Assembly: GCA_041308845.1 (NCBI GenBank)
Contig: JBFZAT010000011.1
Span: forward strand, 9,540-73,539
DNA length: 64,000 nt
From: Candidatus Omnitrophota bacterium
GTDB lineage: Bacteria > Omnitrophota > Gorgyraeia > Gygaellales > Profunditerraquicolaceae
Reading direction: 5' to 3'
The notes under the pieces: generated by a model
Told to the model about the DNA's origin: nothing
What the model saw: only the letters and a program-made list of their open reading frames with translations
The model's database searches: none
Shown: one piece after another, positions 19,168-35,519 of the stretch
Numbering within the stretch: the first letter of the stretch is position 1
Layout of the letters: each line of letters begins with the position of its first letter
Translations under genes and position numbers: made by a program

Positions 19168-19206
19168 ATTTAGCATAGCTTAGTCATCTAAATGAGGTAA
19201 CTTAGA

Positions 19207-20547
19207 ATGAAAATTGTACTGGTTACTTGTCCGGCATACGGCCGTCTGCATCCGCCTTTATCCTTGGCTTGTTTAACCGCAGCTTTAAGACATTGCAGTT
19301 ACCAAGTTACAGCTTTGGATTTAAATATTCAACTTTATAACGAATTTTCGAAAGAACAAAGAGATGTCTACTGGGATTTATTTAACTCACAGCTTTGGCG
19401 GGATAGCAGTATCGTTGAGAGGATAATCTCTAAAGAAAGATTAGAAGCTTGGGTGGAAACTATCTTACAAAAGAATCCACAGGCCGTAGGGTTTTCTGTA
19501 TATAGTTCTAATGAAATTGTCTCTTTAATGCTGGCAGAAAAAATAAAGAAAAAAAATAATGGAATTCAGATTATATTCGGTGGCCCTTTTATCCGTAGGG
19601 ATAATGGAGTTGCCCAATCGATTATTAACAATGCTTATGTTGATTTAGTGGTGATTGGTGAGGGGGAAGGTGCTTTACAGGAAATAGCGCAAGCTTATGA
19701 AGCAAAGAAAGAAATTATGCATTGCCCGGGAGTGCTGCTAAAGTCTGGCGGTCAGATAGTAGACTGCGGTCAGCGGGAGCCGGTTCATGATCTGGACAGC
19801 TTGCCTTTTTCTGATTTTTCAGACTTCCGATTTGAGGACTACGCAGAACCACTAGTGCCTTTGTTGTCTAGCCGGGGTTGTCTTTACAATTGTGGTTTCT
19901 GTAACGAAAAGACCTTCTGGCAAAGTTATCGCTGCCGAAGCGCAGCCAATGTTACCGAGGAAATAAAGCAGCAAATTTTAAAATACGGGATTAATAAGTT
20001 TAGATTTAATGATCTTATGTTAAACGGCAATTTGGAAGAGTTAGAAAAATTTTGTGATTTGATCATTCAGAGTGGGCTTAAAATAACCTGGGGTGGCTAC
20101 ATTTCAGTCCGAAAGATGGGTAGCCAACTGATTAAAAAAATGAAAGAATCTGGGTGCGATTTTCTCTTTATGGGGATTGAAAGCGGTTCACAAAGCATCT
20201 TGAATAAATTTAAGAAAGGCATACAAATAGAAGTAGCCGAAGAGCTATTGCGGGGCTTAAGCCGGGCAGGTATTTCTGCTCACACCGGTTGGATCGTCGG
20301 ATTCCCAGATGAGAGTTCTGTAGATTTTCAACAAACCTTAGATTTTATAAAAAGAAACAGAAGTTATATGAGTTATATTGCCCCCGCCAATATTATGTCG
20401 ATCCAACCCGGGTCTCCGGTTTATCAAGATCCGGTTAAGTTCGGCGTAAAACAAATTATTCATGCTGGGAATTGGGTGGATAATATTACGACTTTAGAAA
20501 TTCGGCAATCCAGGATTAAATATTTCAATAAATATATAGCTTCATAG
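19207..20547 (+). CDS. B12-binding-domain radical SAM enzyme (class B, COG1032-like)
   Basis: N-terminal Rossmann-like B12-binding domain (MKIVLVTCPAYGRL...VGFSVY...IIFGGP), then SSRGCLYNCGFCNE radical SAM motif. Confidence 0.8.
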   Translation: MKIVLVTCPAYGRLHPPLSLACLTAALRHCSYQVTALDLNIQLYNEFSKEQRDVYWDLFNSQLWRDSSIVERIISKERLEAWVETILQKNPQAVGFSVYSSNEIVSLMLAEKIKKKNNGIQIIFGGPFIRRDNGVAQSIINNAYVDLVVIGEGEGALQEIAQAYEAKKEIMHCPGVLLKSGGQIVDCGQREPVHDLDSLPFSDFSDFRFEDYAEPLVPLLSSRGCLYNCGFCNEKTFWQSYRCRSAANVTEEIKQQILKYGINKFRFNDLMLNGNLEELEKFCDLIIQSGLKITWGGYISVRKMGSQLIKKMKESGCDFLFMGIESGSQSILNKFKKGIQIEVAEELLRGLSRAGISAHTGWIVGFPDESSVDFQQTLDFIKRNRSYMSYIAPANIMSIQPGSPVYQDPVKFGVKQIIHAGNWVDNITTLEIRQSRIKYFNKYIAS

Positions 20548-20563
20548 GAAGGTAGAATTAAGA

Positions 20564-21967
20564 ATGAAAATAGCTTTAGTTCAATGTCCGGCCTGGGGCA
20601 GGCTGAATCCTCCATTAGCTTTATCGATGTTGGCTGCTTATTTACGTAGCCAGGGTAAAGAGGTGCTGCTCTTTGATTTAAATAATGATTTATTTCACAA
20701 GGTAAAAGAAGAGGACCGAGCATTGTGGCATTTAGGTAGCGAGTCATTCTGGGAAAATAAGGCTAGTGTTGCCAAATTCGTTTCCGATTATAAAGAATTG
20801 TTGGAAGATTTTGTTAATCAAATCCTGCAGACGGAAACCGGACTTATCGGGTTTTCTATATTTAACAGCTCGACAGAATTAAGTTTATTTATTGCCGAGA
20901 AAATTAAAAAATTAGCTCCTAACAAAACAATAATTTTTGGTGGGCCTAATTGCGCTCCGCATATAAACGGCACCGAAGTGATCAAATCTAGCGCAGTGGA
21001 CATTATGGTGATTGGCGAGGGAGAGTTAGTATTAAATGAAATAATCAACTTGTTTGATAAATATGGTAAGGTCGATTTTTGTAAGGGAACCTGGTTAAAG
21101 AAAGAGGGTAAAGTTATTGATTGCGGGACCGGAGATCTGATTGAAGATTTAAATCTTCTTCCCTTTGCGGATTTTGGAGATTTTTCGTTATCGGCATATA
21201 CTGCTCCATATAGGCTACCAATTTATTTAAGCCGGGGATGTCCGAATCGGTGCGTATATTGCAACGAATCAGTTTTTTGGCGTGGGTATAGACATAGAAG
21301 CGGAGCAAGAGTGTTTCAGGAGTTAAAACACCAGACTGATAAGCATAAAGGAGTGACTCATTTCGATTTCTCCGATTCATTGGTGAATGCTAACCTGAAG
21401 GAATTATCGATTATGGCTGATTTAATTATCGATAACGGCCTTAAAATAACCTGGGGTGGTCAAGCTGTAATTCGTCCTTATATGACTTCTGATTTATTGG
21501 CCAAGCTTAAACAATCTGGTTGTTTGGCTTTAGGTTACGGAATTGAGAGTGGTTCTCAGAAAGTATTAAGCTTGATGCGCAAAGGTTTCACAGTAGAAGA
21601 AGCAGAGCGTGTCATCCGGGATACGCATAAAGCAGGGATAGATGTCGTGACTAATTTTATGTTTGGTTTTCCCGGGGAGACAGATGAAAATTTCGAGGAG
21701 ACACTCCAATTTGTTGCTAAAAATAAAGAGTATATTTCTACCTTAAACCCCAGCCTGGCTTATACAGCTATTGGGGTGGGAACATATCTGCATGCGCATC
21801 CTGAAGAATACGGGATTGATTTAAGCGCCGGTTATCTCTATTGGAGGACCAAAGACGGACAGAATACCTATGAAAAACGGAAAATAAGGTATGAAAGATT
21901 TTGCCGGCAAGCTCTATCTTTGAACATAAATATTAGTTATCCCGTTGATCTTTCAAAGGAAAAATAG
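20564..21967 (+). CDS. B12-binding-domain radical SAM enzyme (class B), tandem paralog
   Basis: MKIALVQCPAWGRLNPPLALSMLAAYL...IIFGGPN...LSRGCPNRCVYCNE; paralog of 19207..20547. Confidence 0.8.
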   Translation: MKIALVQCPAWGRLNPPLALSMLAAYLRSQGKEVLLFDLNNDLFHKVKEEDRALWHLGSESFWENKASVAKFVSDYKELLEDFVNQILQTETGLIGFSIFNSSTELSLFIAEKIKKLAPNKTIIFGGPNCAPHINGTEVIKSSAVDIMVIGEGELVLNEIINLFDKYGKVDFCKGTWLKKEGKVIDCGTGDLIEDLNLLPFADFGDFSLSAYTAPYRLPIYLSRGCPNRCVYCNESVFWRGYRHRSGARVFQELKHQTDKHKGVTHFDFSDSLVNANLKELSIMADLIIDNGLKITWGGQAVIRPYMTSDLLAKLKQSGCLALGYGIESGSQKVLSLMRKGFTVEEAERVIRDTHKAGIDVVTNFMFGFPGETDENFEETLQFVAKNKEYISTLNPSLAYTAIGVGTYLHAHPEEYGIDLSAGYLYWRTKDGQNTYEKRKIRYERFCRQALSLNINISYPVDLSKEK

Positions 21968-21972
21968 ATAAT

Positions 21973-23553
21973 TTGACTATGAATCCAATCATGAAAAACA
22001 GGGTTTCTGTTTATTTATATGTTTGGTTAGGTTTTTTTGTATTGTTTTATGGTGGTTGTTTGATTTATTCAACTTATTTTGGAGGTTTTTTTGTATTTGA
22101 TTATGGCAACTATTTACATGCATTAGTCAATAGAAATAATATTACAACCGTTTTTAGTTCACTTTTTTTGACGCCCTGGAGCTTTAGGATTATAGAAAAT
22201 TTACAATTTTTTCTATGCTTCAATCTATTCGGCCTTAATCCAACAGGATATCTGGCAGTGGGAATGTTGACTTTTGCCGCAGGGATCGTTCTTGTATATT
22301 ATTGCGTATTTACTCTTTCTAAGAGCAGGGCGATAAGTTTTATCAGCTCTTTTTTGATGGTTATCCATCCACTAAATTTAGAAAAATTTGGGTTGATTTG
22401 CCCGGCCCATCTAGAATTTGTTTTTTTCGCAGCCGCACTTCTATCTTATTCATTATCTTTACTCAAAAATAGAAAAGTAAATATTTTTTATATTCTTGCT
22501 TTGGTGTTTTATATTGCCGCTATTTTTACAAGGGTGAATACTCTCATCTTTCCATTATTTATTGTAGCTTATTGTATGTTATTTGAACGGCCTTTAAGTT
22601 TAATAAAAATCATCAAAAGTACAGCAGGATTCTTTATTATTACAGGTGTGTATTTGTGGCTGCGTTTATTTGTCTTGAGCTTAACGCCCGCTCAACAGAC
22701 GCTTTATACTTTTGACTTTTTTAATTTAAGCAATATATTGCATAACTATAAGATGTTTAGTATCTTGGCACTTAAAATAGTTACTAATCCATATAAAATA
22801 ATCTGCACTTGGGATATCTATCTGCATAATCTGTTAAGTGCAGATAAAGCAGTAGTTCTATTTTTTGTGATCATAATTTTATATTTTTCTATATTAGTAA
22901 GAAAAAAAGATTTTTTCGGTCCCGCGTTAGTTAAGACCCGGTTTAAATTATTTTTGCTAGGGTGTTTATGGTATTCGTTAGGGTTATTGCCTTTTTTATT
23001 TTTTGCGGATGATTCGCACACTGCGATTCGTCATTTAGCGCTGTCGACTATTGGTTCGTCAATGGCTATTGCGATAGTGGTGATCGAAGTTTATCGCAGG
23101 ATTTATGCTGCTAGTAGGTATCTGGCCAATGGCATTATATTTCTTTTTCTAATTAATTTTTTTTATTCTACCTACCTGATCTCCAGGAATGTCTTTATAG
23201 ATAGAAATTATGATTATACTTATATAATTCGACATGGTTTTTTTAATAAGTCAAAACTAGAGGCCATCAATAAAACTTATCCTATTTTTCCTCCCCGAAG
23301 CAAAATATATTTTATTAACTTTCATTGGGCCTCAAGGATACCAGAATTTATAAAAATATTTTATAAAGATGAGTCTTTTAAAACATTTTTGTTGACTGAG
23401 CAAAAATTGAAAGAAGTAAGCTTAAACAGTGGGGAGAATATATTTGTATTTATGTCGCTTAAGAATGGCCAGGTATCTGATTTAACCGCTGAATATAATC
23501 TTCAAACCGGATTTATACCTTTAAGTCAGTTCAAAGCAGAGCTGGAGCAATGA
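21973..23553 (+). CDS. GT-C-fold integral membrane glycosyltransferase (PMT/ArnT-like), paralog A2
   Basis: FDYGNYLHALV, NLFGLNPTGY, VIHPLNLEKFGL motifs shared with 15064..16512; polytopic. Confidence 0.55.
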   Translation: MTMNPIMKNRVSVYLYVWLGFFVLFYGGCLIYSTYFGGFFVFDYGNYLHALVNRNNITTVFSSLFLTPWSFRIIENLQFFLCFNLFGLNPTGYLAVGMLTFAAGIVLVYYCVFTLSKSRAISFISSFLMVIHPLNLEKFGLICPAHLEFVFFAAALLSYSLSLLKNRKVNIFYILALVFYIAAIFTRVNTLIFPLFIVAYCMLFERPLSLIKIIKSTAGFFIITGVYLWLRLFVLSLTPAQQTLYTFDFFNLSNILHNYKMFSILALKIVTNPYKIICTWDIYLHNLLSADKAVVLFFVIIILYFSILVRKKDFFGPALVKTRFKLFLLGCLWYSLGLLPFLFFADDSHTAIRHLALSTIGSSMAIAIVVIEVYRRIYAASRYLANGIIFLFLINFFYSTYLISRNVFIDRNYDYTYIIRHGFFNKSKLEAINKTYPIFPPRSKIYFINFHWASRIPEFIKIFYKDESFKTFLLTEQKLKEVSLNSGENIFVFMSLKNGQVSDLTAEYNLQTGFIPLSQFKAELEQ

Positions 23554-23818
23554 TTTTTCACCAAGTGCGCGCCAGTATTAGTTAAAAAATTTAATCAAAT
23601 GATTACCGCATTAAGCTCCCTTTAGTAGGGATTTAATGCTTAGTTTAATTTCTTGTGAGCTATTAATCCTGATTTTAAAACTTATAGATTGAGAAAAAAG
23701 CAACTAAATAAACGTAAAGCGGCTATAGATATTTCTGGCGATAAAATGATTCACTTCTCTCAGTAAGAATATTTACTAATATAATAAAGATAAGGATAAC
23801 GATTACAAGGTAGTCGTA

Positions 23819-25297
23819 ATGGCAAGTAAACTAGAGGGGCTTGAGATGAGCAGAAGTGCTTGTGATAAAAACATGGTATTGCTTATTGTCTTTATTTTTG
23901 CTTTTATTGTATTTTCTTCCTGGCTCACTTTTAATAAGTTTGAGCACAATATGTGGGACGGCCATGATCAAGGAGCGTATTGTCAAATGTTATGGACCAC
24001 TATGCATGGAAAATTATTCTGGTGTAGCGTAACCGGAATTAATGGAGCCTGTGACCTAGCGATACATATGAATGTTTTGATGTTTTTGTTAATTCCTGTT
24101 TATTGGATTTTTAATTTTCCCGTTACGCTTAACATTATCCAGGTGCTTTATCTTGGTATAGCAGCTATCCCGGTTTATCTTATCGCTAAAGAAAAAATGA
24201 GTAGTAAGGTAGGCCTGTTGTTTGCTGTTTTCTATCTTACCAATAATTTTACGATACAATCAATAATTGAAGGTTTTCAACCCAGGAGCATGGCTGTTCC
24301 GCTTTCGCTATTTGGATTTTATTTCCTCATCAAAAATAAATACTTTCTTACTAGTTTATTTATGTGTCTATTAGCCCTTTCCCAGGAGTCAAACAGCATG
24401 TTATTAATTACCTTCGGTATTTACATAATTTTGATTCAAAGACAAATATTACTCGGAGCGCTCATTTCATTTTTTGGTCTGGGATGGTTCATGCTTACAA
24501 TAAACATATTACAGCCCCATTTTGGTGTTTCCAACCCGTTAGGGGTTTTACAATTTGACGCGGCAGGAACAATTTTAGTTTCACCGCTCGAGATTATTCG
24601 CTATTTTATCTTTCATCCAATAGAATTTTTTCAGCGGGCGCTTTCTTATCCGAAGCTGGATTATTTTGTTAGATTGTTTGCGCCATTAGCCTTCCTGTCT
24701 TTATTTAGCTTAAAAGAACTTTTAATCGCTCTGCCGGTTTTTTTACAGAACTTTATTCTCGGTGGAGACCGTTTTATTAGACCTGAAAACCCCAGGCATA
24801 CAATGCCGTTACTTCCTTTTATCTTAATCTCGGCGATTTATTCGGCCAGCTATTTTTATAGTAAACCAAAGTTACGCTGGAAATATATCTGGGTCTTCTT
24901 AGTAATTTGCTGGGGAATATCCACATACAAATTTGTTTGGGATTATAACTATAACCAGCGTTTTTTAAAAGCTTTGGCCCCCGTGACCCAAGAAGAGAAA
25001 ATTCATAGGCAAGCATTAAGGAAAATTGTAAAACTTGTCCCTGCAGACGCAAGTATCTGCGGCGATTTAAAAGCATTTCCCTTTCTGGCCAATCGTTTCA
25101 CTTTTTACGATATCCCCTTTCATATAGAAGATACCGACTATGTTTTAATTGATACTAAAGATCCTAATTTTTCTGCGAAACCAATAAAATCAAGAGAAGA
25201 GTGTCTTGAAATTATAGCAGAAACTTTACGCTCCACCGATTATACGGTTATTAAAGAGGAAGATGGCCTAGTCCTCTTAAAAAGAATAATTAGATAG
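23819..25297 (+). CDS. DUF2079-family integral membrane protein (GT-C-like), paralog B2
   Basis: WDGHDQGAYCQMLWTTMHGKLFWCSVTG...IAAIPVYLIAKEK...FYLTNNFTIQSIIEGFQPRS, near-identical blocks to 16543..18051. Confidence 0.55.
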   Translation: MASKLEGLEMSRSACDKNMVLLIVFIFAFIVFSSWLTFNKFEHNMWDGHDQGAYCQMLWTTMHGKLFWCSVTGINGACDLAIHMNVLMFLLIPVYWIFNFPVTLNIIQVLYLGIAAIPVYLIAKEKMSSKVGLLFAVFYLTNNFTIQSIIEGFQPRSMAVPLSLFGFYFLIKNKYFLTSLFMCLLALSQESNSMLLITFGIYIILIQRQILLGALISFFGLGWFMLTINILQPHFGVSNPLGVLQFDAAGTILVSPLEIIRYFIFHPIEFFQRALSYPKLDYFVRLFAPLAFLSLFSLKELLIALPVFLQNFILGGDRFIRPENPRHTMPLLPFILISAIYSASYFYSKPKLRWKYIWVFLVICWGISTYKFVWDYNYNQRFLKALAPVTQEEKIHRQALRKIVKLVPADASICGDLKAFPFLANRFTFYDIPFHIEDTDYVLIDTKDPNFSAKPIKSREECLEIIAETLRSTDYTVIKEEDGLVLLKRIIR

Positions 25298-25633
25298 GTA
25301 TTTTTATTTACGGCACAGGTTTTAAATATTAAAGATTCAATATTTTTTTATTCCCCCGTAATTATCAGTAACCGGTTCCAAGTTTATTATTTAAGTTAAC
25401 TAGATTGTAGCCTGGGATATACCTAATTTTACCGAGAAAAGTATTGTAGAGTGATATGGTGCTAAACAGCTAAGCACTTTTACAGCTATCCTTTATAGGG
25501 GCAGGTCAGTATTGAGGCTAATGTATTAAATAATGGAATGAACAAAATTCCGGAAAAAACAATTTTACTATTTATTCCCAATTGGGTCAGCAGCTAATAT
25601 TTCGCGCTCGGATTTCTATTCTAGGCTGAGTAA

Positions 25634-26150
25634 AAAGGAATTTAAGATAATTACCTTGAGCCCTCAGGAGAACAGATATATTGAATCGTTTAACGGCAAA
25701 TTATGGGATGAATTGTTGAGCAGAGAGATCTTTGAAACATGCGTGAGGGCGAGGTTTTGGAGCTTAAGTGGCAGGATATTGACATTAGGAGAAATATAAC
25801 TACCCATATGGCACTAAGAACGTAGAGAAACGAGAGGTTCCTATGGATGAAGTTGTCCAGAAGGTTATTATAGGCGTTCTTAAACATCCAGATTCGTAAT
25901 ATATCTTCTGCAACAATGATGAAAACCATATTGAGATATTAATAAATCATTCTTTACAGCTGTTAAGAAAGCGGGTATAATTGACTTCCGCATACATAGT
26001 CTTCGCCATACTTTATTTCGTATTTGGTGATGTCTGGCGTTGGCTTTAATGCGATGAGAGAATTGTTAAGGCACAAGTTACCGTAATGACTCTATGGCAT
26101 AGCCATTTAAAAACGAGCGGTTGATGTTTTAGGACAGCGGGTAGTCTTCG
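25634..26150 (+). pseudogene. Degraded mobile-element remnants: DDE transposase (rve) C-terminal fragment plus frameshifted phage-type tyrosine integrase
   Basis: Translation of 25634-25739 gives ...SPQENRYIESFNGKLWDELLSREIFET, the conserved rve-family C-terminal motif. Downstream frames give ELKWQDIDI..., REVPMDEVVQKVI, IDFRIHSLRHTLF and ELLRHKLP, which are integrase box I/II-like. They are interrupted by stops and frameshifts. Confidence 0.6.
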
Positions 26151-26233
26151 GTTGGTCCCTAGTGGGTATTATAAAGTAAAAACAAAAGAAGTTAATTTCT
26201 GCAACTTTTTGATAATTCTATAATTCTGATATA

Positions 26234-26310
26234 TGGGCGATTAGCTCAGTTGGTTAGAGCGTCTGATTTACATTCAGAAGGTCAGGGGTTCAACTCCTCT
26301 ATCGCCCACC
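26234..26310 (+). tRNA. tRNA-Val (anticodon TAC), CCA encoded
   Basis: GGGCGAT...ATCGCCC acceptor, D-arm AGCTCAGTTGGTTAGAGC, anticodon stem TCTGA/TCAGA with loop TTTACAT, T-loop GGTTCAACTCC, terminal ACCA. Confidence 0.8.
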
Positions 26311-26386
26311 ATTAAATACTTAATAAATAGTAGACTTTTTTGAGATAAGAAAGTATAATAAGTTCCAAAAATTTTCAATAGGTTTT

Positions 26387-26465
26387 GGGGTCGTAGCTTA
26401 GCCTGGCTTAAAGCGCCTCCCTGTCACGGAGGAGATCGCGAGTCCGAATCTCGTCGGCCCCGCCA
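26387..26465 (+). tRNA. tRNA-Asp (anticodon GTC), CCA encoded
   Basis: Acceptor GGGGTCG/CGGCCCC (one G-U pair), anticodon stem CCTCC/GGAGG with loop CTGTCAC, T-arm GCGAG-TCCGAAT-CTCGT, terminal GCCA. Confidence 0.7.
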
Positions 26466-26473
26466 GTAATCTA

Positions 26474-26505
26474 AACGCCATAATTAACTTATGGCGTTTT
26501 TATTT
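26474..26505 (+). terminator. Rho-independent terminator after the tRNA pair
   Basis: Perfect 10-bp stem AACGCCATAA/TTATGGCGTT with a 5-nt loop, followed by TTTTTATTT. Confidence 0.7.
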
Positions 26506-26518: not shown

Positions 26519-26575
26519 AGTGATTTACCTTGAGTTTTGCCTTCCCGGGTGTTAATATAGCATTGAATTTATCCT
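26519..26575 (+). promoter_or_regulatory. Sigma70-like promoter (TTGAGT-N17-TAATAT) inside a ~55-bp element that is duplicated at 37483-37537
   Basis: GATTTACCTTGAGTTTTGCCTTCCCGGGTGTTAATATAGCATTGAATTTA is ~80% identical to the element upstream of 37562; the -35/-10 spacing of 17 is conserved in both. Confidence 0.5.
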
Positions 26576-26663
26576 CTAGATAAACAAGCAAACCCAAAAC
26601 ATGACAAAATTAATCGGCGGTAGGATAAACTTTACTGACTTTCAAAGCAAAGAAAGGTTCTAA

Positions 26664-27389
26664 GTGAAGACTTATGTTCTTATTCCGACGTTCAATGAGA
26701 TTGAGAACATCGTAAGATTAATAAACGAAATTCTGGATTTAGGCATCGAAGGCCTATATATTCTTATCGTAGATGATGATTCTCCTGATGGTACCGGGAA
26801 ATTGACCCAGGAGTTATTCAAAAATGATTCCCGAGTTGAGGTGATGATTAGAGCCGGCCAGCGCGGTAGAGGAGAGGCCGGGGTATTCGGGTTCCGGCAG
26901 GCTTTAAATAAAGGAGCAGATTATATTATTGAAATGGACGCTGATTTTTCCCATCAGCCTAGGCATATCCCGCAATTTCTAGCGGCAATAAAGCAAAATG
27001 ATGTAGTTATAGGGTCGCGTTTTATACTCGGAGGGGAGGATCGCGACCGGGGTTGGCTTCGGCAAACCATTACGAAACTAGCCGGAGTTTACACAAGATC
27101 AATCTTGGGCTTAAGAATACACGATGTATCTTCGGGTTTTCGCTGTTTTAGAAAAGCAGCGTTAGAAAAGGTTGATTTAAGCAGTTTGGTTTCTACGGGG
27201 CCTTCTATTGTTTTAGAATTACTGTATAGGATTATTTTAAGCGGAGCTCGAGTTAAGGAGATACCGATTATTTTTGCCGATAGGAGGCAAGGTAAAACCA
27301 AATTGAAATATGTTATTCTATTTGAAACCTTGATTATGGTATTAAGGTTAAAAAAGCTGAAGGGCACAAAACAGTTACTCAAGCAATGA
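26664..27389 (+). CDS. GT2 polyprenol-phosphate sugar synthase (DPM1/ArnC-like), short form
   Basis: VLIPTFNEIENI...LYILIVDDDSPDGT...IEMDADFSH; GT2 DxD architecture, 241 aa, GTG start. Confidence 0.7.
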   Translation: MKTYVLIPTFNEIENIVRLINEILDLGIEGLYILIVDDDSPDGTGKLTQELFKNDSRVEVMIRAGQRGRGEAGVFGFRQALNKGADYIIEMDADFSHQPRHIPQFLAAIKQNDVVIGSRFILGGEDRDRGWLRQTITKLAGVYTRSILGLRIHDVSSGFRCFRKAALEKVDLSSLVSTGPSIVLELLYRIILSGARVKEIPIIFADRRQGKTKLKYVILFETLIMVLRLKKLKGTKQLLKQ

Positions 27390-27426
27390 TCTTTTAGGAT
27401 AGTTTTGCCCACAAGTTAATTAAAAA

Positions 27427-29052
27427 ATGCAAACCCGAATTAATAGTTTATTAAAGTTTTTGGTGGGGTGCTTGACCATCCAACGGGTTGTTTTTGTATT
27501 GATCTTAATATATTTTTTGCTAGCCGCTTTGACCGGAATTACCACTTTAGGCTTAAGCCATGATGAAGGGCAAAGAGGGTTAGAAACTATAGAGATACTC
27601 GAATTTAAACATTTCCCCCTGATGAGAGAATTCTACTGCGGGGCAGTAATCTCCTATCTACAAATTCCATTATTTTTAATCTTCGGCGCTACGGTATTTG
27701 CCATTAGGTTTACCCAGGTCATCTTTTCATTGGGGAGTATTGTTTGTCTTTATTATGTGGGGCAAAGATGGTTCAACCATTATATAGGTCTTCTTGCCGC
27801 CTTACTGTTGAGCTTAAATCCTGTTTTTATCTGGGCGACCAGATTGGGAGCAGAAAGAGAAGAAATACTCCAGATTTTTCTTTTTTGGTTGGGCTTAGCG
27901 TTAGTCCAACTTTACCTAGATAAAAAAAGAAAAAAGTATTTATACTCTGGTTTTTTTACCTTCGGGTTGGCTTTAAGCGCAAAAATCATGTTTTTAGGAT
28001 ATGCCCTGGGGATGATTGCTACTTTACTTTTTATGGGTAAACCGGCCGCTAATTTTATTAAAAATAAAATCTTTTATAAAAAATATACATTATTAGTTTC
28101 CGGAATAATGTTTTTAGCCGGTAGCTCCTTAGTTATCATTTACAATATCGCCTCCGGAGGCCAAACAATAACTAAATTATGGAACAGTTTATTTATTAAG
28201 GGCGCCGGAGCAGTGCGCGGGGCTAATTTTGGCATTAATAACTTGGATTTTATTAATAATCTTGCCCACAGATTATCGGACTTTAAGTCACTGGTCACCG
28301 GTGGGATTTTTAGTAATTACCATAATTTTTTTAATCTGGTAATTTTGGGTTTTTCTTTATTAATAGTTATAGGTTATTTACTGCTCACTAAACAAAAACT
28401 GTTATCCCAAAAGAAAATTATTTTTTTACTGGGGACCTACTTTTTTTTATTTTTGGGGACCTCCTTTACGCCTAGAGAGTATGACCACGCAAACATTATA
28501 ATTTTGCTGCCGGTAACCCAGATTATCGTAGCGATCGCAATATTTTCTTTAAAAAACATCTTGGCAAAAAATGTATTATTATCAATGCTCGTTCCCCTCT
28601 GTGCCTTATTACCGCTAGTTTCCAATGAAGTCGGCGCCTATGGCCGTTATTTACTTACTTTGGAAAACACTGGCGGTAGAGGCCAATCTGCTTGTGCGGT
28701 ATATGAGCTGGTGGATTATATTAATAGAAATAATATTAAGAAAAATGTATTTTCGGTAGGAGAATGGGGGCCAATCGGAAATGTTAATTTTCTGCTCAAG
28801 CGCAGAGTGGTTCTGCCACTTCCTTATTTTCGGTATTGGCAGGAAGAACCGGATATAAAATTTGAAACTTTTATTAAACAGTACCCGAAAGCTTATTTTA
28901 TCAGGGTGATTGGTTTTGATTCCGAAAACGGCAACTGCGATTTTAAGTTCCTTTCGGAATCGGCATTGAGAAAAAATAAGAAAATATCTGAAGTGAGGGT
29001 ATTTAAGAACCGGGCAGGCGAGGCCTGCTACGGGCTTTATCAATTAGAGTAA
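27427..29052 (+). CDS. GT-C-fold membrane glycosyltransferase (ArnT/PMT-like, polyprenol-P-sugar dependent), paralog C1
   Basis: Polytopic; LSHDEGQRG first-loop motif, REEILQIFLFW, conserved C-terminal globular region; paralog of 32935..34584. Confidence 0.55.
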   Translation: MQTRINSLLKFLVGCLTIQRVVFVLILIYFLLAALTGITTLGLSHDEGQRGLETIEILEFKHFPLMREFYCGAVISYLQIPLFLIFGATVFAIRFTQVIFSLGSIVCLYYVGQRWFNHYIGLLAALLLSLNPVFIWATRLGAEREEILQIFLFWLGLALVQLYLDKKRKKYLYSGFFTFGLALSAKIMFLGYALGMIATLLFMGKPAANFIKNKIFYKKYTLLVSGIMFLAGSSLVIIYNIASGGQTITKLWNSLFIKGAGAVRGANFGINNLDFINNLAHRLSDFKSLVTGGIFSNYHNFFNLVILGFSLLIVIGYLLLTKQKLLSQKKIIFLLGTYFFLFLGTSFTPREYDHANIIILLPVTQIIVAIAIFSLKNILAKNVLLSMLVPLCALLPLVSNEVGAYGRYLLTLENTGGRGQSACAVYELVDYINRNNIKKNVFSVGEWGPIGNVNFLLKRRVVLPLPYFRYWQEEPDIKFETFIKQYPKAYFIRVIGFDSENGNCDFKFLSESALRKNKKISEVRVFKNRAGEACYGLYQLE

Positions 29053-29091
29053 TCCGTTAAGAATATTGAAAGATATCGCCGCAGGGGGAGC

Positions 29092-30555
29092 TTGATGGCA
29101 GAGTTAAAGAATAAAAAAATCCTTCTCATTTTTCCTGACAACAGCCCATTTCCTTACCATATCGCCACGCCGCTAAATATTTTCTGCTTGGGAACGTATT
29201 TAAACAACCAAGGTTATCAAGTGTTTTACTATGATGAACGGGTGGAATCCTTAAAGCAGCTTTATGCCAGGCTGGAGGAGAAGCCGTTTCTGGTGGGCTT
29301 AACTACGATGACCTCGCATCAAATCAAGCGTGCTATTGCTATCGCTGCCAGGATTAAAAAAGTTTTTCCCCGTATACCGCTGGTTTGGGGAGGTGTTCAT
29401 CCTAGCATGTGTCCGGAACAGACCTTGAAATCAGATTGGGTGGATTTTGTAATTATCGGCGAAGGGGAAGAAACTCTGCTAGCTTTAGCCGATAAGCTTC
29501 AAGAAGGAATTCAAGATTTTAGCCAAATAGCAGGTTTAGCTTGGAAAAAAGGCAGTGCAATCCATATAAATCAGCAGAGAGAATTTATGGATATAGAGAC
29601 ATTGCCGTTTCCCTATCCAGACCAGGCAGCCAGTAGGCTTGCTTTATATCTTAAACATGAGACTACTCTACCGGTAGTCGGTTATCAGCTTTCCCGGGGG
29701 TGCCGTTTCCGGTGCCGTTTTTGTTACAGCACTTTTTTCCATAAGGGGATCTGCAGGACAAAAAGCAAAGAAAAGATTAAAGATGAGCTGACAAAAATTC
29801 AAGGTTTGGGCGTAAAGAAAATAATTTTTTATGATGATAGCCTGGGGCCGGACAGGCAGATGTTATACGCATTAACCGAAATTATGGGCGGGCTTAAAAT
29901 GCGTTGGACTGCTTCCCCGCGCCTAGAATTTTTCGATCAAGATTTGTTGGAAAGATTTCAAGAGAGCGGTTGTGAACATTTATGTTTTGGCATTGAATCG
30001 TTTTCAGATGAGAGGCTGGGTTATCTGGGTAAAGGGCTTACTCGGAAGCAGATTTTAGCCGGGGTTAAAGTTATGGCCCAGGCTCAAAACCGAGTTACTT
30101 ATCTATTGATGTTTGGCTTTCCCGATGAATCCGTCGAGGATTTAAAAGAAATGTTGGATTTCGTTGATGAACTAAGACGGTTGCATAAAAATGCCGAGGT
30201 CGCCTTGCAGCCATATGCTCCGTTTCCGGGTACGCCGCTTTATGAGCAGGCGGTAAAAAATGGATTTCAGCCTCCCCTTCAACTAGCAGGCTGGAGCAGA
30301 TTTACCATGGATGACGTGCACACCCCTTGGGTTAAGAATAAGGCCCAGTTAAGAAACTTATATTTAATTTCATTTATGGCTTTTAGGTATGATTGGTTGC
30401 TTAGTGGGTTTAAGTTAAAATATTTTTATTATTTACTGCACAAAATAGCGCTTTGGAGATGGAAAAAAAGATTTTTTGGCTTTTGTGTTGAGTCTTGGTT
30501 ATATCGGCAGTATAAAAGAGCCTGGATTATTTATCAAAAAATAACCAAAGGTTAA
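29092..30555 (+). CDS. B12-binding-domain radical SAM enzyme (class B), third paralog
   Basis: N-terminal B12-like Rossmann domain (KKILLIFPDN...VGLTTMTSH...LVWGGVHPS) and LSRGCRFRCRFCYS. Confidence 0.75.
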   Translation: MMAELKNKKILLIFPDNSPFPYHIATPLNIFCLGTYLNNQGYQVFYYDERVESLKQLYARLEEKPFLVGLTTMTSHQIKRAIAIAARIKKVFPRIPLVWGGVHPSMCPEQTLKSDWVDFVIIGEGEETLLALADKLQEGIQDFSQIAGLAWKKGSAIHINQQREFMDIETLPFPYPDQAASRLALYLKHETTLPVVGYQLSRGCRFRCRFCYSTFFHKGICRTKSKEKIKDELTKIQGLGVKKIIFYDDSLGPDRQMLYALTEIMGGLKMRWTASPRLEFFDQDLLERFQESGCEHLCFGIESFSDERLGYLGKGLTRKQILAGVKVMAQAQNRVTYLLMFGFPDESVEDLKEMLDFVDELRRLHKNAEVALQPYAPFPGTPLYEQAVKNGFQPPLQLAGWSRFTMDDVHTPWVKNKAQLRNLYLISFMAFRYDWLLSGFKLKYFYYLLHKIALWRWKKRFFGFCVESWLYRQYKRAWIIYQKITKG

Positions 30556-31562
30556 TTAAGTGGCTTTTTAGTGCTATCCGGTAAGAGCATTCTTAAAACC
30601 CCGCAAATAAAGCCTATACCGATAGTCAGATGCATGAGGTGTACAGCAAGGTAAACTCTTCCTGTAAAAAACAGGCCTTCCTTTAAATAAACATAGCGCA
30701 GGAATTTTATTTCTAATAAAAATTGGGAAAAAAGCATTACCAGGGAAATAATCAAAAGATTATAATGCAGGAAAGAGCATAAAAAGCAACTTATGCCCCA
30801 GAAAGAAAAAACAGCAGATAAGCTCTCTTGGGCAGTGGCCAAGGCGCCCGGGGATTCGAATTTTATTCTTTTTATAAATACGGGGGCCCAGGTGGCGCTT
30901 CTGGTTAATAGTGTTTTTAGACGTTGTGGGAAATTTTTACACCGGCGTTCAAATTGGATGTTTTGCAGGATAACGTTCCGGTAAACATTAGATAGCCGAT
31001 GGCCGAATTCATATTCTTCAATGCCGGCCCCTTTAAAACTTGGATTAAATCCTCCTAACTGTTTAAAAGCCTTTGTTCTAATTGCTCCGCATTGGGATTG
31101 GAAAATCGTATAATTTCTATAAACTTCGTTTTTTATCCACCGGTAATAGTAATATGTTCTTAAGGAGATAAACTTTGCGCCAAAGGTTTCAGAACAGTAC
31201 TTAGGCGACATCGTACAAGCAATAGCGGTAATTTCCTGTTTTTGGTTAAAAAATTCCCAGATCTGATCCAAGGTATCCTTTTTAATGAATACGTCAGCAT
31301 CAATAAATAACAGAATGTCTCCTTGGGCTTTTTCTGCGCCATCATTGCGAGAAGCTGCAGCGCCTCGGTTTAGCGCATGTTTTATAATTTTTACCGGGAA
31401 GTTATGAGCGATTTCAGCAGTCGCATCTTGGCTGCAGTCTTCCACTACGATCACTTCAAAATCTTTAAAATCCGAGGCAAAAACTGCTTTAAGGCAGTCT
31501 TTCAGGGTATCTGCAGCATTAAAGGCCGGGACGATTATAGAAATTTTAAAGTTATCAGGCAT
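30552..31562 (-). CDS. GT2 glycosyltransferase with C-terminal membrane anchor
   Basis: ISIIVPAFNAADTL...FEVIVVEDCSQDAT...LFIDADV (DxD), C-terminal hydrophobic helices. It is the only minus-strand gene in the island. Confidence 0.7.
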   Translation of the reverse strand: MPDNFKISIIVPAFNAADTLKDCLKAVFASDFKDFEVIVVEDCSQDATAEIAHNFPVKIIKHALNRGAAASRNDGAEKAQGDILLFIDADVFIKKDTLDQIWEFFNQKQEITAIACTMSPKYCSETFGAKFISLRTYYYYRWIKNEVYRNYTIFQSQCGAIRTKAFKQLGGFNPSFKGAGIEEYEFGHRLSNVYRNVILQNIQFERRCKNFPQRLKTLLTRSATWAPVFIKRIKFESPGALATAQESLSAVFSFWGISCFLCSFLHYNLLIISLVMLFSQFLLEIKFLRYVYLKEGLFFTGRVYLAVHLMHLTIGIGFICGVLRMLLPDSTKKPLN

Positions 31563-31760
31563 AGTCTAGTTAGTTGGTTTATAGAAACTCTGGGCTTTTA
31601 TTATTCTCCATATTCAGCTAGTTTTCAAGTGAAATTTAAGCATATATTTTATAAATGTTTTTAGAGTAGGGTTGAAATGCCGATTGTAAAATATATACAC
31701 TACAGCTATAATAAAACTAAAGTTTACCTCGGAAGAGATATGAGCTAGAGTAAAAGCTAA

Positions 31761-32900
31761 ATGAATTTGATATTGGACCTTTGTAAAAAATTCAAGCGCC
31801 AACTTATTAATATTAAGACTCTCAAGGCAGTGTCTGTGCGCGGTTATTTGCTGCATCTATTCGGTTCTCTGCGTCTGATTTTTAACGGGCAGAAAGCGAT
31901 CTTCCCGCTTAACATTACGCTAGATTTGACTTATGATTGTAATCTTCTTTGTGAATTTTGTTTCTTGAATTTTCTGCCAAATTTTAGAAAGGAGAACAAA
32001 GGGGAGTTGTTAGGCTTCGAGGAAATCTCCGGCCTGATTAAATCGATAGGTACAAAAAATACATCATTTCTTTTAACCGGAGGTGAGCCGTTATTGAGGA
32101 AAGATTTGCTCAAGATTATAAATACGATTAACCAAAGCGGTTTTCATTGCGGTTTATTCACTAACGCTACCCTGCTTAGTCCGGATATTTCCGAAAAAAT
32201 AATTGCAGCTGGCTTAAGCTATTTGCTCTTCTCTCTAGACGGGCCAGAAAAAATTCATGATGCATTACGGGGTGTGCCTGGAAGCTTTAAGAAAACCTAC
32301 GGAAATATCGAGTATTTAATTAACAAACGAAAGAATTCCACACCGCGCGTAATTATGAACAGCTTAATTTTAGATAAAAATCAGTCAGGTTTATTAGAAA
32401 TGGTGGACATCGCAAAGGGCTTAAAGGTTGATTGTATTGCCTTTGATTTTTTGACTTTTCTTACTACCGATGACTTCGAAGCTCACCGTGTTAATTTTAA
32501 TAATTTTTCTCCCCAGGATAATTTCAAAAGTTTGGTTTTAGTCAAAGATTTTAAAAACGCAGATTTTCAGGATTTGACCAAAAAGATTGAAGCCGTAAAA
32601 AAATATGCCCGCAGTCAAAAAGTAAGGATCTTCTTTAAACCGGATTTAAGTAAAAAAGAATTACAGGGATGGTTTAAACAGGGATTTAGATTTATCCGTA
32701 GATGCATCTACCCCTGGAATGTGATGAGAGTGTCTCCTTACGGAGACGTTTATCCTTGCGCCGCTTTTTATATTAAGATGGGTAATATCCGGCAGACTCC
32801 GGTCGGGGAGCTTTGGAATAATCGGAAATTTAGAGATTTTCGCAAGTTGCTCCGGGGCAGAAATCAGCTCTCTGGATGCAACCGCTGTGTGAAGTTATAA
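31761..32900 (+). CDS. Radical SAM protein with Cys-rich C-terminus (SPASM/twitch-like)
   Basis: LTYDCNLLCEFCF (CxxxCxxC), TGGEPLL, C-terminal CAAFY...CNRC cysteines. Confidence 0.7.
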   Translation: MNLILDLCKKFKRQLINIKTLKAVSVRGYLLHLFGSLRLIFNGQKAIFPLNITLDLTYDCNLLCEFCFLNFLPNFRKENKGELLGFEEISGLIKSIGTKNTSFLLTGGEPLLRKDLLKIINTINQSGFHCGLFTNATLLSPDISEKIIAAGLSYLLFSLDGPEKIHDALRGVPGSFKKTYGNIEYLINKRKNSTPRVIMNSLILDKNQSGLLEMVDIAKGLKVDCIAFDFLTFLTTDDFEAHRVNFNNFSPQDNFKSLVLVKDFKNADFQDLTKKIEAVKKYARSQKVRIFFKPDLSKKELQGWFKQGFRFIRRCIYPWNVMRVSPYGDVYPCAAFYIKMGNIRQTPVGELWNNRKFRDFRKLLRGRNQLSGCNRCVKL

Positions 32901-32934
32901 AATTAAGGTTTAAGAAATTAGCCAGTGGAGTTCG

Positions 32935-34584: not shown

Positions 34585-34598
34585 GGTGCAATGCTAAA

Positions 34599-35519
34599 AT
34601 GATCGAAATTTCAGTTGTGGTGCCGATTCTCAACGAAGAGGGGAGCCTGCGGCTTTTAAACGGTGCTTTGTGTCGGGTGCTAGAAGAAAGCGGGAAAAAG
34701 TTCGAGGTCGTTTTTGTTGATGACGGCAGTACTGATAGTAGTTTTGCCATTTTGTCGCAATTAGCCCAGCATGACCATCGGCTGAAGGTAATTAAATTTA
34801 CTAAAAATTTTGGCCAAACCCCAGCGATTGCCGCTGGAGTTCGTTATGCCCAGGGGCGAATTATTATATTGATGGACGGAGATTTACAGAATGACCCTGC
34901 CGATATACCTGGTTTATTGTATAAATTAGATGACGGTTTCGATGTTGCTAGCGGATGGCGTAGAAAACGCCAGGATCCTTTTTTATCGAAAAGAATACCT
35001 TCTTATCTGGCCAACAAATTAATTTCCCTGTTGACCGGCATAAAGCTTCATGATTTCGGTTGTACCTTTAAGGCTTACCGTAGTGAGGTGATTAAAGAGA
35101 TCCGGTTGCAAGGTGAAATGCATCGGTTTTTGCCGGTTTTTGCTGTCCGGGCCGGCTACCGAGTTAGCGAAGTGGAGGTGGCCCATTCTAAGCGGTCACA
35201 GGGAAAGTCTAAATATGGGTTAAACCGGATTTTGAAAGTCCTACTGGACCTACCCGGATTAGTATTTTTGCACAATTATTCTATCAGGCCTAATTACATC
35301 TTTGGCGGGTGGGGGCTATTTTTGATTTTTATTGCCATTCTATTTTTCTTAGGTGCTGTTTTGTTTCATATCTTACGTGGCATTCTGCTTTCAGGTATTA
35401 TTCTGGCGATCGGGATCCAGTTGGTTATACTGGGTTTAGTTATTGAAATGTTCACCCGGGTATATAATGACATTACTTCCAAGCAGCCGTATATAATTAA
35501 AACCTTAATCAATTTTTAA
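34599..35519 (+). CDS. GT2 polyprenol-phosphate glycosyltransferase (ArnC/GtrB-like) with two C-terminal TM helices
   Basis: VVVPILNEEGSL...VVFVDDGSTDSS...ILMDGDLQNDP, C-terminal hydrophobic pair; paralog of 26664..27389. Confidence 0.75.
   Translation: MIEISVVVPILNEEGSLRLLNGALCRVLEESGKKFEVVFVDDGSTDSSFAILSQLAQHDHRLKVIKFTKNFGQTPAIAAGVRYAQGRIIILMDGDLQNDPADIPGLLYKLDDGFDVASGWRRKRQDPFLSKRIPSYLANKLISLLTGIKLHDFGCTFKAYRSEVIKEIRLQGEMHRFLPVFAVRAGYRVSEVEVAHSKRSQGKSKYGLNRILKVLLDLPGLVFLHNYSIRPNYIFGGWGLFLIFIAILFFLGAVLFHILRGILLSGIILAIGIQLVILGLVIEMFTRVYNDITSKQPYIIKTLINF

Follow-up and report, generated by a model that had tools for sequence, protein, structure and literature searches.

Two copies of a putative Omnitrophota OMP promoter on either side of a 10.9-kb insertion

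Why should a glycosylation module and the gene of an outer membrane protein (OMP) located 11 kb further downstream be preceded by the same 55-nt element? The question arose from a 64-kb stretch of DNA from a Candidatus Omnitrophota bacterium, here named the window, in which the original prediction had interpreted the two copies as a shared regulator-binding site. The comparisons described below suggest another answer: the 55-nt element is quite probably a sigma-70-type promoter with an extended −10 motif that belongs to a conserved Omnitrophota OMP operon, and an island, island B, was inserted between its two copies.

The repeat and its promoter motifs

A repeat search identified positions 26521 to 26575 (copy 1) and 37484 to 37538 (copy 2) as direct repeats of 55 nt, both on the plus strand, 80% identical and 10,963 nt apart. 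Direct counting gave 44 identical positions of 55, in agreement with the duplication and the degree of identity originally predicted, and the longest identical run was an 11-mer core of 11 nt. The likeness was confined to 55 to 58 nt, with flanks that aligned no better than shuffled sequence (p = 0.28 on the left and p = 0.97 on the right side). A degenerate 41-mer spanning both copies had 2 matches in the 64 kb, which were these copies, and matched in 0 of 100 dinucleotide-preserving shuffles. In a scan with a position weight matrix (PWM), copy 2 reached 57.3 bits and copy 1 53.5 bits, with the next best site at 1.3 bits; neither the PWM nor the degenerate pattern yielded a third site in the window, these 64 kb being the part of the organism's own genome covered by the motif scan. 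The left junction, from the tRNA-Asp gene through copy 1 into the GT2 gene, was found again, 99.9% identical, in the two independent assemblies L209 (GCA_041308905.1) and L210 (Logan SRR28346261) and is therefore not an assembly artifact. Support from a second assembly refers to this left junction, while the right junction (AsnB, copy 2, OMP) was read from one assembly.

Both copies contained the arrangement TTGAGT-N17-TAWTAT, as had been noted before. In copy 1, the −35 motif TTGAGT is located at positions 26530 to 26535, the −10 motif TAATAT at 26553 to 26558, and the predicted +1 at about 26565; in copy 2, TTGAGT is at 37493 to 37498, TATTAT at 37516 to 37521, and the predicted +1 at about 37528. 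Not recognized in the original prediction was a TG one base 5′ of the −10 hexamer in both copies (TGTTAATAT and TGTTATTAT), at positions 26550 to 26551 and 37513 to 37514, which makes these extended −10 motifs. This TG was also conserved in the orthologous promoters, which had been found without using it as a criterion. Both copies agreed with sigma-70 promoters in the distance between the hexamers (17 nt, within the range of 16 to 18 nt) and in the A at position 2 and the T at position 6 of the −10 motif. A consensus scanner called copy 2 promoter-like (9 of 12 matches, 17-nt spacer, TG) and scored copy 1 with 8 of 12, just under the cutoff of 9 of 12. The box at the +1 position was diverged in copy 1, TTGAATTTA compared to the consensus TTAAGTTTT.

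The element precedes both the glycosylation module and the OMP gene, as predicted, and is promoter-like in both places. Copy 1 is at the ancestral position after the terminator of tRNA-Asp, with GT2 as the gene in front of it today and about 99 nt of leader in between. Copy 2 is 78 nt from the ATG of the OMP gene, the same spacing as in the orthologues, and the stretch from AsnB to copy 2 contained no plus-strand terminator. A role as an RNA element or riboswitch was also considered and dropped, since no Rfam family matched the element and RNA folding showed no excess structure compared to shuffled sequences (z = +0.4 to +0.8). We know of no study of the Omnitrophota sigma factor.

Conservation extended beyond the hexamers, which had been part of the original prediction and was now found in a profile of about 44 orthologous promoters. 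This profile contained 24 high-information columns, of which copy 1 kept 22 and copy 2 kept 23; 9 of these 24 columns were not forced by the search pattern, as others were. Conserved columns that had not been used for selection were TTT 3 to 5 nt 5′ of CTTGAG, a run of T after the −35 motif, an A after the −10 motif, and the box TTAAGTTT at the predicted +1; the conserved A was located exactly 7 nt after the −10 motif. The two copies mismatched at 1 of the 24 constrained columns and at 10 of the other 31 (Fisher p = 0.015). In the alignment, the constrained positions were thus selectively retained in both copies, and retention of 22 to 23 of 24 positions argues that both are probably active. 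The −35 box TTGAGTTTT and the +1 box form a conserved direct repeat with a distance of 33 nt, and CTTGAG-like repeats in the spacer were not conserved between subclades.

A single OMP promoter in the relatives and an insertion in the window

About 46 of 72 related loci had the element 5′ of the start codon (ATG) of the OMP gene, mostly about 80 nt away; the distance was 43 to 113 nt in the others and 250 nt in L010. Among the 44 unique orthologous elements, most start about 80 nt from this ATG, and their spacer columns were low in information. The related DNA, 1.04 Mb with the element in about 50 loci, contained it once at each of them, and two copies were present only in the window, and every PWM match of at least 15 bits in the related loci was 5′ of the OMP gene. 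A genome collection of 596 Gb was scanned with the pattern CCTTGAGTTTT-N11-TGNTANNAT. This gave at least 12 matches of the Omnitrophota type, all of those listed being single-copy, and 10 were verified to be directly 5′ of an OMP orthologue. The listed matches outside the Omnitrophota were scattered singletons in AT-rich genomes, mostly of Firmicutes and Patescibacteria, as expected by chance for a 17-base pattern in 596 Gb. Judged by this distribution, the element is probably a clade-conserved OMP promoter, neither a regulon motif nor a repeat family.

The genes for tRNA-Val and tRNA-Asp are immediately 5′ of the OMP gene in most related loci, followed by a terminator and then by the promoter. 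In the window, this conserved tRNA-Val/tRNA-Asp/OMP synteny is represented on the plus strand by tRNA-Val(tac) at positions 26235 to 26311, tRNA-Asp(gtc) at 26387 to 26465, which in the relatives is about 50 to 150 nt 5′ of the OMP gene, and an intrinsic terminator at 26473 to 26503, a hairpin with a T run that is also conserved in the relatives. The OMP gene, the putative native target of the promoter, is located at 37562 to 39076 on the plus strand, and its product has a signal peptide and a C terminus ending with ELKF. This gene was assigned to Candidatus Omnitrophota, and some homologues carry the domain PF13372 (Alginate_exp); the OMP protein of the window had no match in Pfam or NCBIfam, and a comparison of the OMP profile with the PDB by sequence gave no relative. 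Downstream of the OMP gene, the synteny of tRNA_bind, CxxCxxCC, LPG_synthase_C, RNase_T/WYL, and PilZ was conserved. Overall, genes at positions 5481 to 14980 and 37562 to 44356 were syntenic in 15 to 82 related loci.

Between the two promoter copies, island B comprises 10.9 kb (26576 to 37483, plus strand). According to Pfam and NCBIfam gene calls, it starts with genes for a polyprenol-phosphate glycosyltransferase-like GT2 protein (26664 to 27389), a PMT_2/GT39-like protein (27427 to 29052), and a B12-radical SAM protein (29092 to 30555). These are followed by a GT2 gene on the minus strand (30552 to 31562) and genes for a radical SAM/SPASM protein (31761 to 32900), PMT_2 (32935 to 34584), GT2 (34599 to 35519), and an AsnB-type amidotransferase (35543 to 37438). 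Only glycosyltransferases, radical SAM enzymes, and AsnB were found, and neither a recombinase nor a transposase was among the genes of island B. Beyond the two tRNA genes and outside of the repeat, island A with debris of mobile elements (14981 to 26234, plus strand) forms the context, composed of a DUF2079/radical-SAM cluster (15064 to 25297), an rve_3 fragment at about 25650 to 25750, and a tyrosine-recombinase pseudogene at about 25740 to 26110 (PF00589 at E = 6e-16 on a translation stitched across frames). Translated in frame 1 alone, this recombinase remnant had no Pfam match, and a tblastn comparison with the integrase of L002 gave E = 0.17.

Genes of the regions 15064 to 25297 and 26664 to 37438 had no orthologue in 82 related loci, with three B12-radical SAM genes showing 24 to 29% matches in one to three loci; in island B, it was only the B12-radical SAM gene that had such distant 24 to 29% matches, in three loci. 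The GC content of island B, 39.1% versus 42.5 to 43.5% in the core, was a modest deviation, and its tetranucleotide profile was closest to that of island A (r = 0.955). The left flank of copy 1 was orthologous to the tRNA-Asp/terminator region of the relatives (scores of 63 to 100 versus 13.6 ± 2.2 for shuffled sequences), and no matching region existed for the left flank of copy 2, which compared to the orthologous spacers gave p = 0.35 to 0.9 in most cases, with p = 0.0025 for L016 alone. The sequence comparison shows the insertion in the window and its absence from the relatives. The main structural point, missed by the original prediction, is that imperfect direct repeats bracket a 10.9-kb insertion in the otherwise strictly conserved tRNA-Asp/OMP junction.

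Other insertions in the tRNA-Asp/OMP intergenic region of relatives were at other junctions: in L001 and L081 at the tRNA 3′ end, in L002 within the spacer, and in L010 within the 5′ untranslated region (5′UTR). The repeat in the window begins 56 nt past the end of tRNA-Asp, leaving the tRNA 3′ end outside. A longer repeat including this 3′ end, as in a classical attachment site, had been suggested by eye from GCCAG..TAATCT..AAAC 5′ of copy 2 and was rejected (p = 0.28 versus shuffled sequences).

Origin of the second copy and other readings

The promoter would occur twice in this genome because a horizontally acquired 11-kb sugar-modification cluster came to lie between the copies. In the proposed native state of the clade, there would be one promoter per genome, directly after tRNA-Val, tRNA-Asp, and the terminator. 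Copy 1, contiguous with the native tRNA-Asp terminator, may have been captured by island B and would most likely drive the genes for GT2, PMT_2, and the B12-radical SAM protein, up to the convergent minus-strand gene at 30552 to 31562. Copy 2, contiguous with the native 5′UTR, would provide for independent expression of the OMP operon. The promoter logic common to the module and the OMP gene would thus result from a shared ancestry of their promoters and not from membership in a wider regulon. We infer from the sequence that both copies fire, which genes each of them drives, and by which route the promoter was duplicated.

Concerning this route, copies 1 and 2 agreed at 44 of 62 positions in a 62-nt comparison, copy 1 and the promoters of L016 and L002 at 46 of 62, and copy 2 and the promoter of L001, its closest match and from another species, at 47 of 62. 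In the weakly constrained columns, the copies differed at 10 of 31 positions, and either copy differed from the closest promoters of other species at 9 to 11 of 31. The divergence between the copies equals that between promoters of different species and points to an old duplication or to the import of one of them. The favored explanation is therefore that one copy was brought along by DNA entering from a different Omnitrophota lineage or that the promoter was duplicated long ago, and a recent in situ duplication would fit the data less well. A mosaic or phylogenetic test for the native copy gave no resolution from 55 to 62 nt because the distance between the copies was no different from their distance to the closest other species. 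If the copies had reached this divergence before island B was inserted, their longest identical run, 11 nt, would not have sufficed for RecA to recombine them efficiently.

Also counting against the preferred explanation are an island B without a recombinase or transposase and a repeat that, unlike classical att sites, leaves out the tRNA 3′ end.

Alternatively, a dedicated transcription factor could bind to the 55-mer and control the glycosylation module together with the OMP gene in one regulon, with the regulator maintaining the similarity of the sites. This is unlikely, despite a constraint that reaches past the sigma-70 contacts (TTT 5′ of the −35 motif, TTTT-CCC after it, the box at +1), a +1 box that repeats the −35 box 33 nt downstream, and the preservation of nearly all of these additional conserved positions in both copies. 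The motif was single-copy and associated only with the OMP gene in every relative; the window had no third site, and about 1 Mb of related DNA contained the site upstream of the OMP gene only. No regulator gene was adjacent. Moreover, the likeness stopped exactly at the boundaries of the insertion, which is the signature of a duplication.

The module outside of the window is a further argument. Among the GT2 orthologues whose upstream region could be read, the nearest, and the sole informative one, was that of L206 (about 70% identity), where another gene ends 57 nt upstream and no promoter element is present. PMT_2 had very few homologues, and the close ones were located on short contigs (about 2 kb) whose start is already within the module. 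A 39% homologue in L204 was set aside as an unrelated gene of a hydrogenase cluster.

With a promoter that is single-copy and OMP-only in the relatives, there is no need to assume a site at which one regulator serves different operons. The shared regulator-binding site of the original prediction was not borne out in this form: common descent from the single-copy OMP promoter suffices, and no regulator was identified. Co-regulation of the module and the OMP gene, the other part of this prediction, stays plausible through the shared ancestry of the promoters; a dedicated shared regulator is unlikely. A factor may bind to the native OMP promoter, and co-regulation would then be a consequence of the duplication and not its cause.

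A second alternative interprets the copies as attL and attR of a site-specific integration at the promoter core (CCTTGAGTTTT), with an island that brought a promoter-like arm restoring function and a recombinase acting in trans or lost. Direct repeats do bracket a foreign, compositionally distinct segment beside a tRNA gene, and no identical block shared by the two repeats is longer than the 11-mer core. L026 carries an unrelated YdjC/B12-radical-SAM island directly adjoining a truncated promoter, the homology of which starts inside the core at GTTTTCCC. The tyrosine-recombinase pseudogene is about 400 nt 5′ of copy 1, and islands without a recombinase but with long imperfect repeats, mobilized in trans, have been documented, as for the microcin H47 island (PMC3191183). 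This reading is nevertheless improbable. No recombinase was found within the repeats; the pseudogene is outside of them, beyond two tRNA genes, and is more readily assigned to island A. L026 provides the one supporting breakpoint, with its other end off the contig (Ga0172370_10001420), which stops 8 kb upstream. There was no second genome with duplicated promoters among the relatives and the scan matches listed, and the other islands in this intergenic region (L001, L081, L002, L010) used other junctions.

With a similarly small chance, the ultra-conserved core of the OMP promoter (TGATTTRCCTTGAGTTTT) may be an attachment site for recombinase-less Omnitrophota cargo islands that carry their own copy of the promoter. 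Integration would then plug the cargo into a strong resident promoter and restore expression of the essential OMP operon, as a promoter-targeting counterpart of the targeting of tRNA genes, with the island of L026 as a second product.

Finally, a dispersed repeat family of the REP or MITE type, or a chance or low-complexity match, can practically be dismissed: the window had just the two copies and a related locus just one, located without exception at the orthologous position and not at hundreds of loci as in a common repeat, shuffled sequences gave no match, neither a hairpin nor excess structure was present, and the matches listed outside the Omnitrophota were chance-like singletons.

Meaning of the locus and comparison with known systems

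The preferred reading, an OMP promoter with an island inserted between its two copies, is an ordinary genomic-island story with no new regulatory network and no new mechanism. It replaces a suggested regulatory motif by the putative native promoter of a conserved, uncharacterized Omnitrophota OMP operon, fixes the boundaries of an acquired glycosylation/radical-SAM island for annotation, and shows a hot spot of insertion between tRNA-Asp and the OMP gene with a cargo that differs by lineage. The first three genes of island B are predicted to follow the expression logic of the OMP gene, which would be biologically sensible for surface-modifying enzymes. To our knowledge, there are no genetics and essentially no mapped promoters in the Omnitrophota, and the alignment of about 44 promoters is a usable start for a promoter model in this group. 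A literature search for Omnitrophota promoters, promoter-flanked islands, or a described case of this architecture found nothing.

The element resembles sigma-70 extended −10 (TGn) promoters in its TTGAGT −35-like hexamer, 17-nt spacer, TG, and TANNAT −10 motif, in the conserved purine 7 nt 3′ of the −10 motif, in its position 5′ of an operon, and in the variable spacer between conserved boxes. In contrast to these promoters, the flanking blocks (TTTGC-CTTGAGTTTT-CCC and TTAAGTTTT at +1) show an unusual degree of conservation between species with OMP proteins that are only 60 to 80% identical.

With tRNA-adjacent islands bracketed by attL and attR, island B shares a lower GC content, the absence from relatives, the flanking direct repeats, a position within 120 nt of a tRNA gene, and a locus with other islands and recombinase debris. 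It differs from them because its repeats of 55 nt are only 80% identical, coincide with a promoter, and do not contain a tRNA 3′ end, and no integrase is inside. The microcin H47 island of Escherichia coli carries about 11 to 13 kb of cargo with extensive imperfect direct repeats and no recombinase of its own (PMC3191183; also PMC5426353). Island B is similar in these three properties, although the mobility of the H47 island was shown experimentally, island B is known from its sequence alone, and the taxa are unrelated.

When a promoter is captured or duplicated at an insertion site, the inserted cluster uses the resident promoter and the displaced gene keeps a copy, which is a general evolutionary pattern and not a defined family. 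The proposed arrangement would follow this pattern, with the resident OMP promoter in front of the first genes of island B and an equivalent one serving the OMP gene.

The duplicated element and its neighborhood

The original prediction of a promoter-like element present in two copies, at 26521-26575 (copy 1) and 37484-37538 (copy 2), both on the plus strand, was borne out by a repeat search and by orthologous promoters of the OMP gene (37562-39076, plus strand), which encodes a conserved Omnitrophota outer-membrane protein. Both sequences were present at these places and formed a direct repeat of 55 nt with 80% identity (44/55 by direct count) and a spacing of 10,963 nt in the window. A degenerate 41-mer spanning both copies matched the window twice, at the copies, and none of 100 dinucleotide-preserving shuffles. 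The TTGAGT motif predicted 17 nt from a TAATAT or TATTAT −10 hexamer was found in both copies, and both had an extended −10 with a TG one base 5' of the hexamer. The likeness was sharply bounded, the flanks being at the level of shuffles both on the left (p = 0.28) and on the right (p = 0.97).

Copy 1 begins 56 nt after tRNA-Asp(gtc) (26387-26465), with tRNA-Val(tac) just upstream of this tRNA gene and a terminator hairpin (26473-26499 plus T run) between tRNA-Asp and copy 1. A promoter-like TAGACT-17-TATAAT (10/12) was seen between the tRNA genes at 26331-26359. Downstream of copy 1 are the eight genes of island B, the 10.9-kb segment between the copies: a polyprenol-phosphate glycosyltransferase-like GT2, a PMT_2/GT39-like membrane protein, a B12-binding radical SAM enzyme, a GT2 on the minus strand (30552-31562), a radical SAM/SPASM enzyme, a second PMT_2, a GT2, and an AsnB-type amidotransferase. 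Copy 2 is placed between the AsnB stop codon at 37438 and the OMP gene. The junction of tRNA-Asp, copy 1, and GT2 was seen again at 99.9% identity in two independent assemblies, L209 (GCA_041308905.1) and L210 (Logan); the right junction, on the side of copy 2, is supported by one assembly.

The OMP gene product has 504 aa, a signal peptide, and a C terminus ending in ELKF. Its homologues came from Candidatus Omnitrophota MAGs, only some of them with a precomputed match to PF13372 (alginate-export-like barrel), and the window protein had no Pfam, NCBIfam, or PDB relative by sequence. Conservation of the gene is high (over 100 clusters at 59-80% identity), and the synteny downstream is also kept (tRNA_bind, CxxCxxCC, LPG_synthase_C, RNase_T/WYL, and a PilZ-like protein). 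It is very widespread in Omnitrophota, with 360 clusters and many invariant aromatic and glycine positions.

The element at related loci and its anatomy

A total of 82 related loci were collected, and 72 of them had usable upstream sequence. About 46 of these 72 had the element 5' of the OMP ATG, in most at a distance of about 80 nt, with the consensus ..TTTGCCTTGAGTTTTCCC..N..TGTTAYCATA..TTAAGTTTT. In most loci, tRNA-Val and tRNA-Asp were directly upstream of OMP (ARAGORN), as in L003, where tRNA-Asp ends at 1927 and OMP starts at 2080. A stricter pattern, run on 1.04 Mb, found a single element per locus, in every case on the OMP strand and 5' of OMP; among the sequences scanned with this pattern, only the window contained two copies. 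A position weight matrix built from the orthologous elements was run on the window and the related loci. It gave the window copies 57.3 and 53.5 bits, against 1.3 bits for the next best site in the window, and all matches of at least 15 bits in the related loci were upstream of an OMP gene. Among the matches listed from a scan of the species-genome collection, chance matches dominated; each of the 12 Omnitrophota-type matches among those listed occurred as a single copy, and for 10 of them a position directly 5' of an OMP orthologue was confirmed. Because it occurs once per locus and always upstream of OMP, the element is best read as the promoter region native to the OMP operon and normally present in one copy.

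The information profile of 44 unique orthologous elements contained four conserved blocks: TTT plus CTTGAGTTTT, which is the −35 motif with both flanks; TGnTAnnAT, the extended −10; an A immediately 3' of the −10; and TTAAGTTT, whose A, exactly 7 nt 3' of the −10, is at the expected start site. From the −35 block to the TG, the 11 nt of spacer were freely variable. Of the 24 high-information columns, 9 had not been imposed by the search pattern, and the −10 block was conserved also in the first search, made with the upstream 17-mer alone. Other intergenic regions in the window contained, by direct reading, ordinary TTGACA-type promoters, so that the extended conservation is specific to the OMP promoter. 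An Rfam search of the element gave no match, and its RNA folding was not in excess over that of shuffles. In all its computable features, the element fits an extended −10 promoter of the sigma-70 type.

In one subclade (L020, L037, L039, L040, L044, and L046, about 7100-9900), a conserved block of four minus-strand genes of about 2.9 kb, with products of about 136-140, 433-434, 171, and 148 aa, was situated between tRNA-Asp and the OMP gene, and the promoter, a TGATAWTAT variant, lay 43-78 nt 5' of the start codon. Conservation across the clade covers both the −35 box TTGAGTTTT and the +1 box TTAAGTTTT, which form an almost identical direct repeat at a spacing of 33 nt, or about three helical turns (window 26530-26538 and 26563-26571; 37493-37501 and 37526-37534). 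Either a protein may bind this feature, or the likeness of the T-rich flanks may be a coincidence.

Two islands beside the tRNA pair and the origin of the copies

All window proteins were compared by tblastn with the 82 loci. Flanking genes at 5481-14980 and 37562-44356 were conserved in 15-82 loci, and the genes at 15064-25297 (island A) and 26664-37438 (island B) had 0 orthologues in the 82 loci, the three B12-radical SAM genes of the islands giving only distant matches of 24-29% in one to three loci. The order in the relatives is an ATP-synthase-c-like gene (orthologue of 14522-14980), followed within tens of bases by tRNA-Val, tRNA-Asp, the promoter, and OMP. Island genes without orthologues and this compact order indicate that the window carries two insertions of about 10-11 kb each, one to the left and one to the right of the tRNA pair. 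Island B exactly fills the space between the promoter copies. The left flank of copy 1 (tRNA end, terminator, and start of the spacer) was orthologous to the relatives (scores 63-100 versus 13.6 ± 2.2 for shuffles), and that of copy 2 had no match; copy 2 is 78 nt from the OMP ATG, the ancestral distance. The GC content was 36.5% in island A, 39.1% in island B, and 42.5-43.5% in the core, and the tetranucleotide profiles of the islands were more alike (r = 0.955) than either was to the core. Relatives of the glycosylation module were rare and were located on short contigs from other samples, with 67-72% nucleotide identity. In L206, the one informative relative, another membrane-protein gene ends 57 nt upstream of the GT2 orthologue and no OMP-type element was found in this upstream region, so the promoter is not intrinsic to the module.

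Besides a radical SAM/SPASM enzyme and two B12-radical SAM enzymes, island A (14981-25297) encoded two DUF2079 membrane proteins and two products with no family assignment; two of the radical SAM genes had 24-28% matches only. Just upstream of tRNA-Val, at 25650-26110, there were two pieces of mobile-element debris, an rve_3 fragment (IS3-type transposase C terminus; PF13683, E = 5e-6) and a tyrosine-recombinase catalytic domain with at least 4 frameshifts and stops (frame-stitched translation, PF00589, E = 6e-16).

The constrained columns were kept in copy 1 (22/24) and copy 2 (23/24). The copies differed from each other at 1 of 24 constrained columns versus 10 of 31 others (Fisher p = 0.015), so that both have evolved under promoter-like constraint. 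They were not each other's nearest: copy 1 shared 44/62 positions with copy 2 and 46/62 with L016 or L002, and copy 2 shared 47/62 with L001. At weakly constrained columns, the copies differed at 10/31 and each from its closest other-species promoters at 9-11/31. The closest sampled relatives (OMP proteins 78-80% identical) were without the island. Two readings of the origin remain: the duplication may be old, the island having disappeared or failed to become fixed elsewhere, or one of the copies may have been imported together with the DNA of another Omnitrophota lineage that shares the conserved junction.

The tRNA-Asp/OMP locus is an insertion hotspot. An island with intact integrase and excisionase was located upstream of the promoter in L002. 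In L001 and L081, an island end was followed by a tRNA-Asp 3' fragment, GGCCCCGCCAG. About 100 nt were very similar, by eye comparison only, between these two unrelated loci (L001 330-470; L081 about 9870-10000, 130 nt 5' of the OMP start), the GGCCCCGCCAG end being just upstream of OMP; this stretch looks like the attR end of an integrative-element family targeting tRNA-Asp. L010 had about 170 nt (2740-2915) and L007 about 30 nt (about 640-710) of GC-rich extra sequence in the OMP 5' untranslated region, between promoter and start codon. Other sequence was in place of the promoter or terminator in L004 and L042. Short GGGGACGG/CCGTCCCC-rich sequences, for example AAAGGGAACGGTTCTATTTTTT and its complement, replaced the tRNA-Asp terminator or promoter in L004 (about 9850-9990), L042 (about 8610-8690), and L015 (about 9880-9920); they might represent a small repeat, mobile or palindromic.

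A different plus-strand island in L026 (1-8072, far end beyond the contig) encoded YdjC, a 1045-aa protein, and three radical SAM proteins, two of which have B12-binding domains. A truncated promoter follows about 20 nt after the end of the island, and the homology begins within the CCTTGAG/TTTT core, at GTTTTCCCGCC; the −35 was therefore lost, and the −10 was degraded to TGCCGCCAT. This junction inside the promoter core and an identical core of 11 nt between the window copies would fit the promoter core itself acting as an attachment site, an unlikely reading with a single breakpoint behind it. A dispersed repeat and a regulon motif common to many operons were both rejected at the sampled depth (64 kb of this genome plus the related loci).

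Predicted expression and comparison with known islands

A transcript from copy 1 would start near 26565, and its 99-nt leader would precede GT2, followed by PMT_2 and the B12-radical SAM gene, with the minus-strand GT2 (30552-31562) convergent to this transcript; the remaining island genes would probably use the 198-nt divergent intergenic region 31563-31760. In the leader, an open reading frame of 20 codons (MTKLIGGRINFTDFQSKERF, 26601-26663) has a TAA stop abutting the GTG start of GT2; it was not conserved at the GT2 orthologue of L208, a relative of the module, and is probably due to chance. Copy 2 would be the OMP operon's own promoter, with a predicted start near 37528 and a 34-nt leader. 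No plus-strand terminator was found between AsnB and copy 2, so some read-through is possible. Since each is behind a copy of the same promoter, the copy 1-proximal glycosylation genes and OMP would follow the same promoter logic, a co-regulation by promoter inheritance. The predicted duplicated promoter stands and shared control of the module and OMP is plausible, but the regulator-binding site proposed along with it is not needed to explain the similarity of the copies. The value is mainly in the annotation and in the definition of a promoter in a phylum without genetics.

The structure resembles a tRNA-adjacent genomic island in most respects. Classical islands of this kind have an integrase within the repeats and a repeat that includes the tRNA end, whereas here no integrase lies inside the repeats and the repeat is without the tRNA end. 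The microcin H47 island of E. coli (PMC3191183) is a documented precedent for an island that is small, lacks a recombinase, and is bordered by long imperfect repeats. Conserved promoters are known, as are islands bounded by direct repeats; this is a new example of both, and the uncommon detail of island B is that its flanking direct repeats are the promoter itself.
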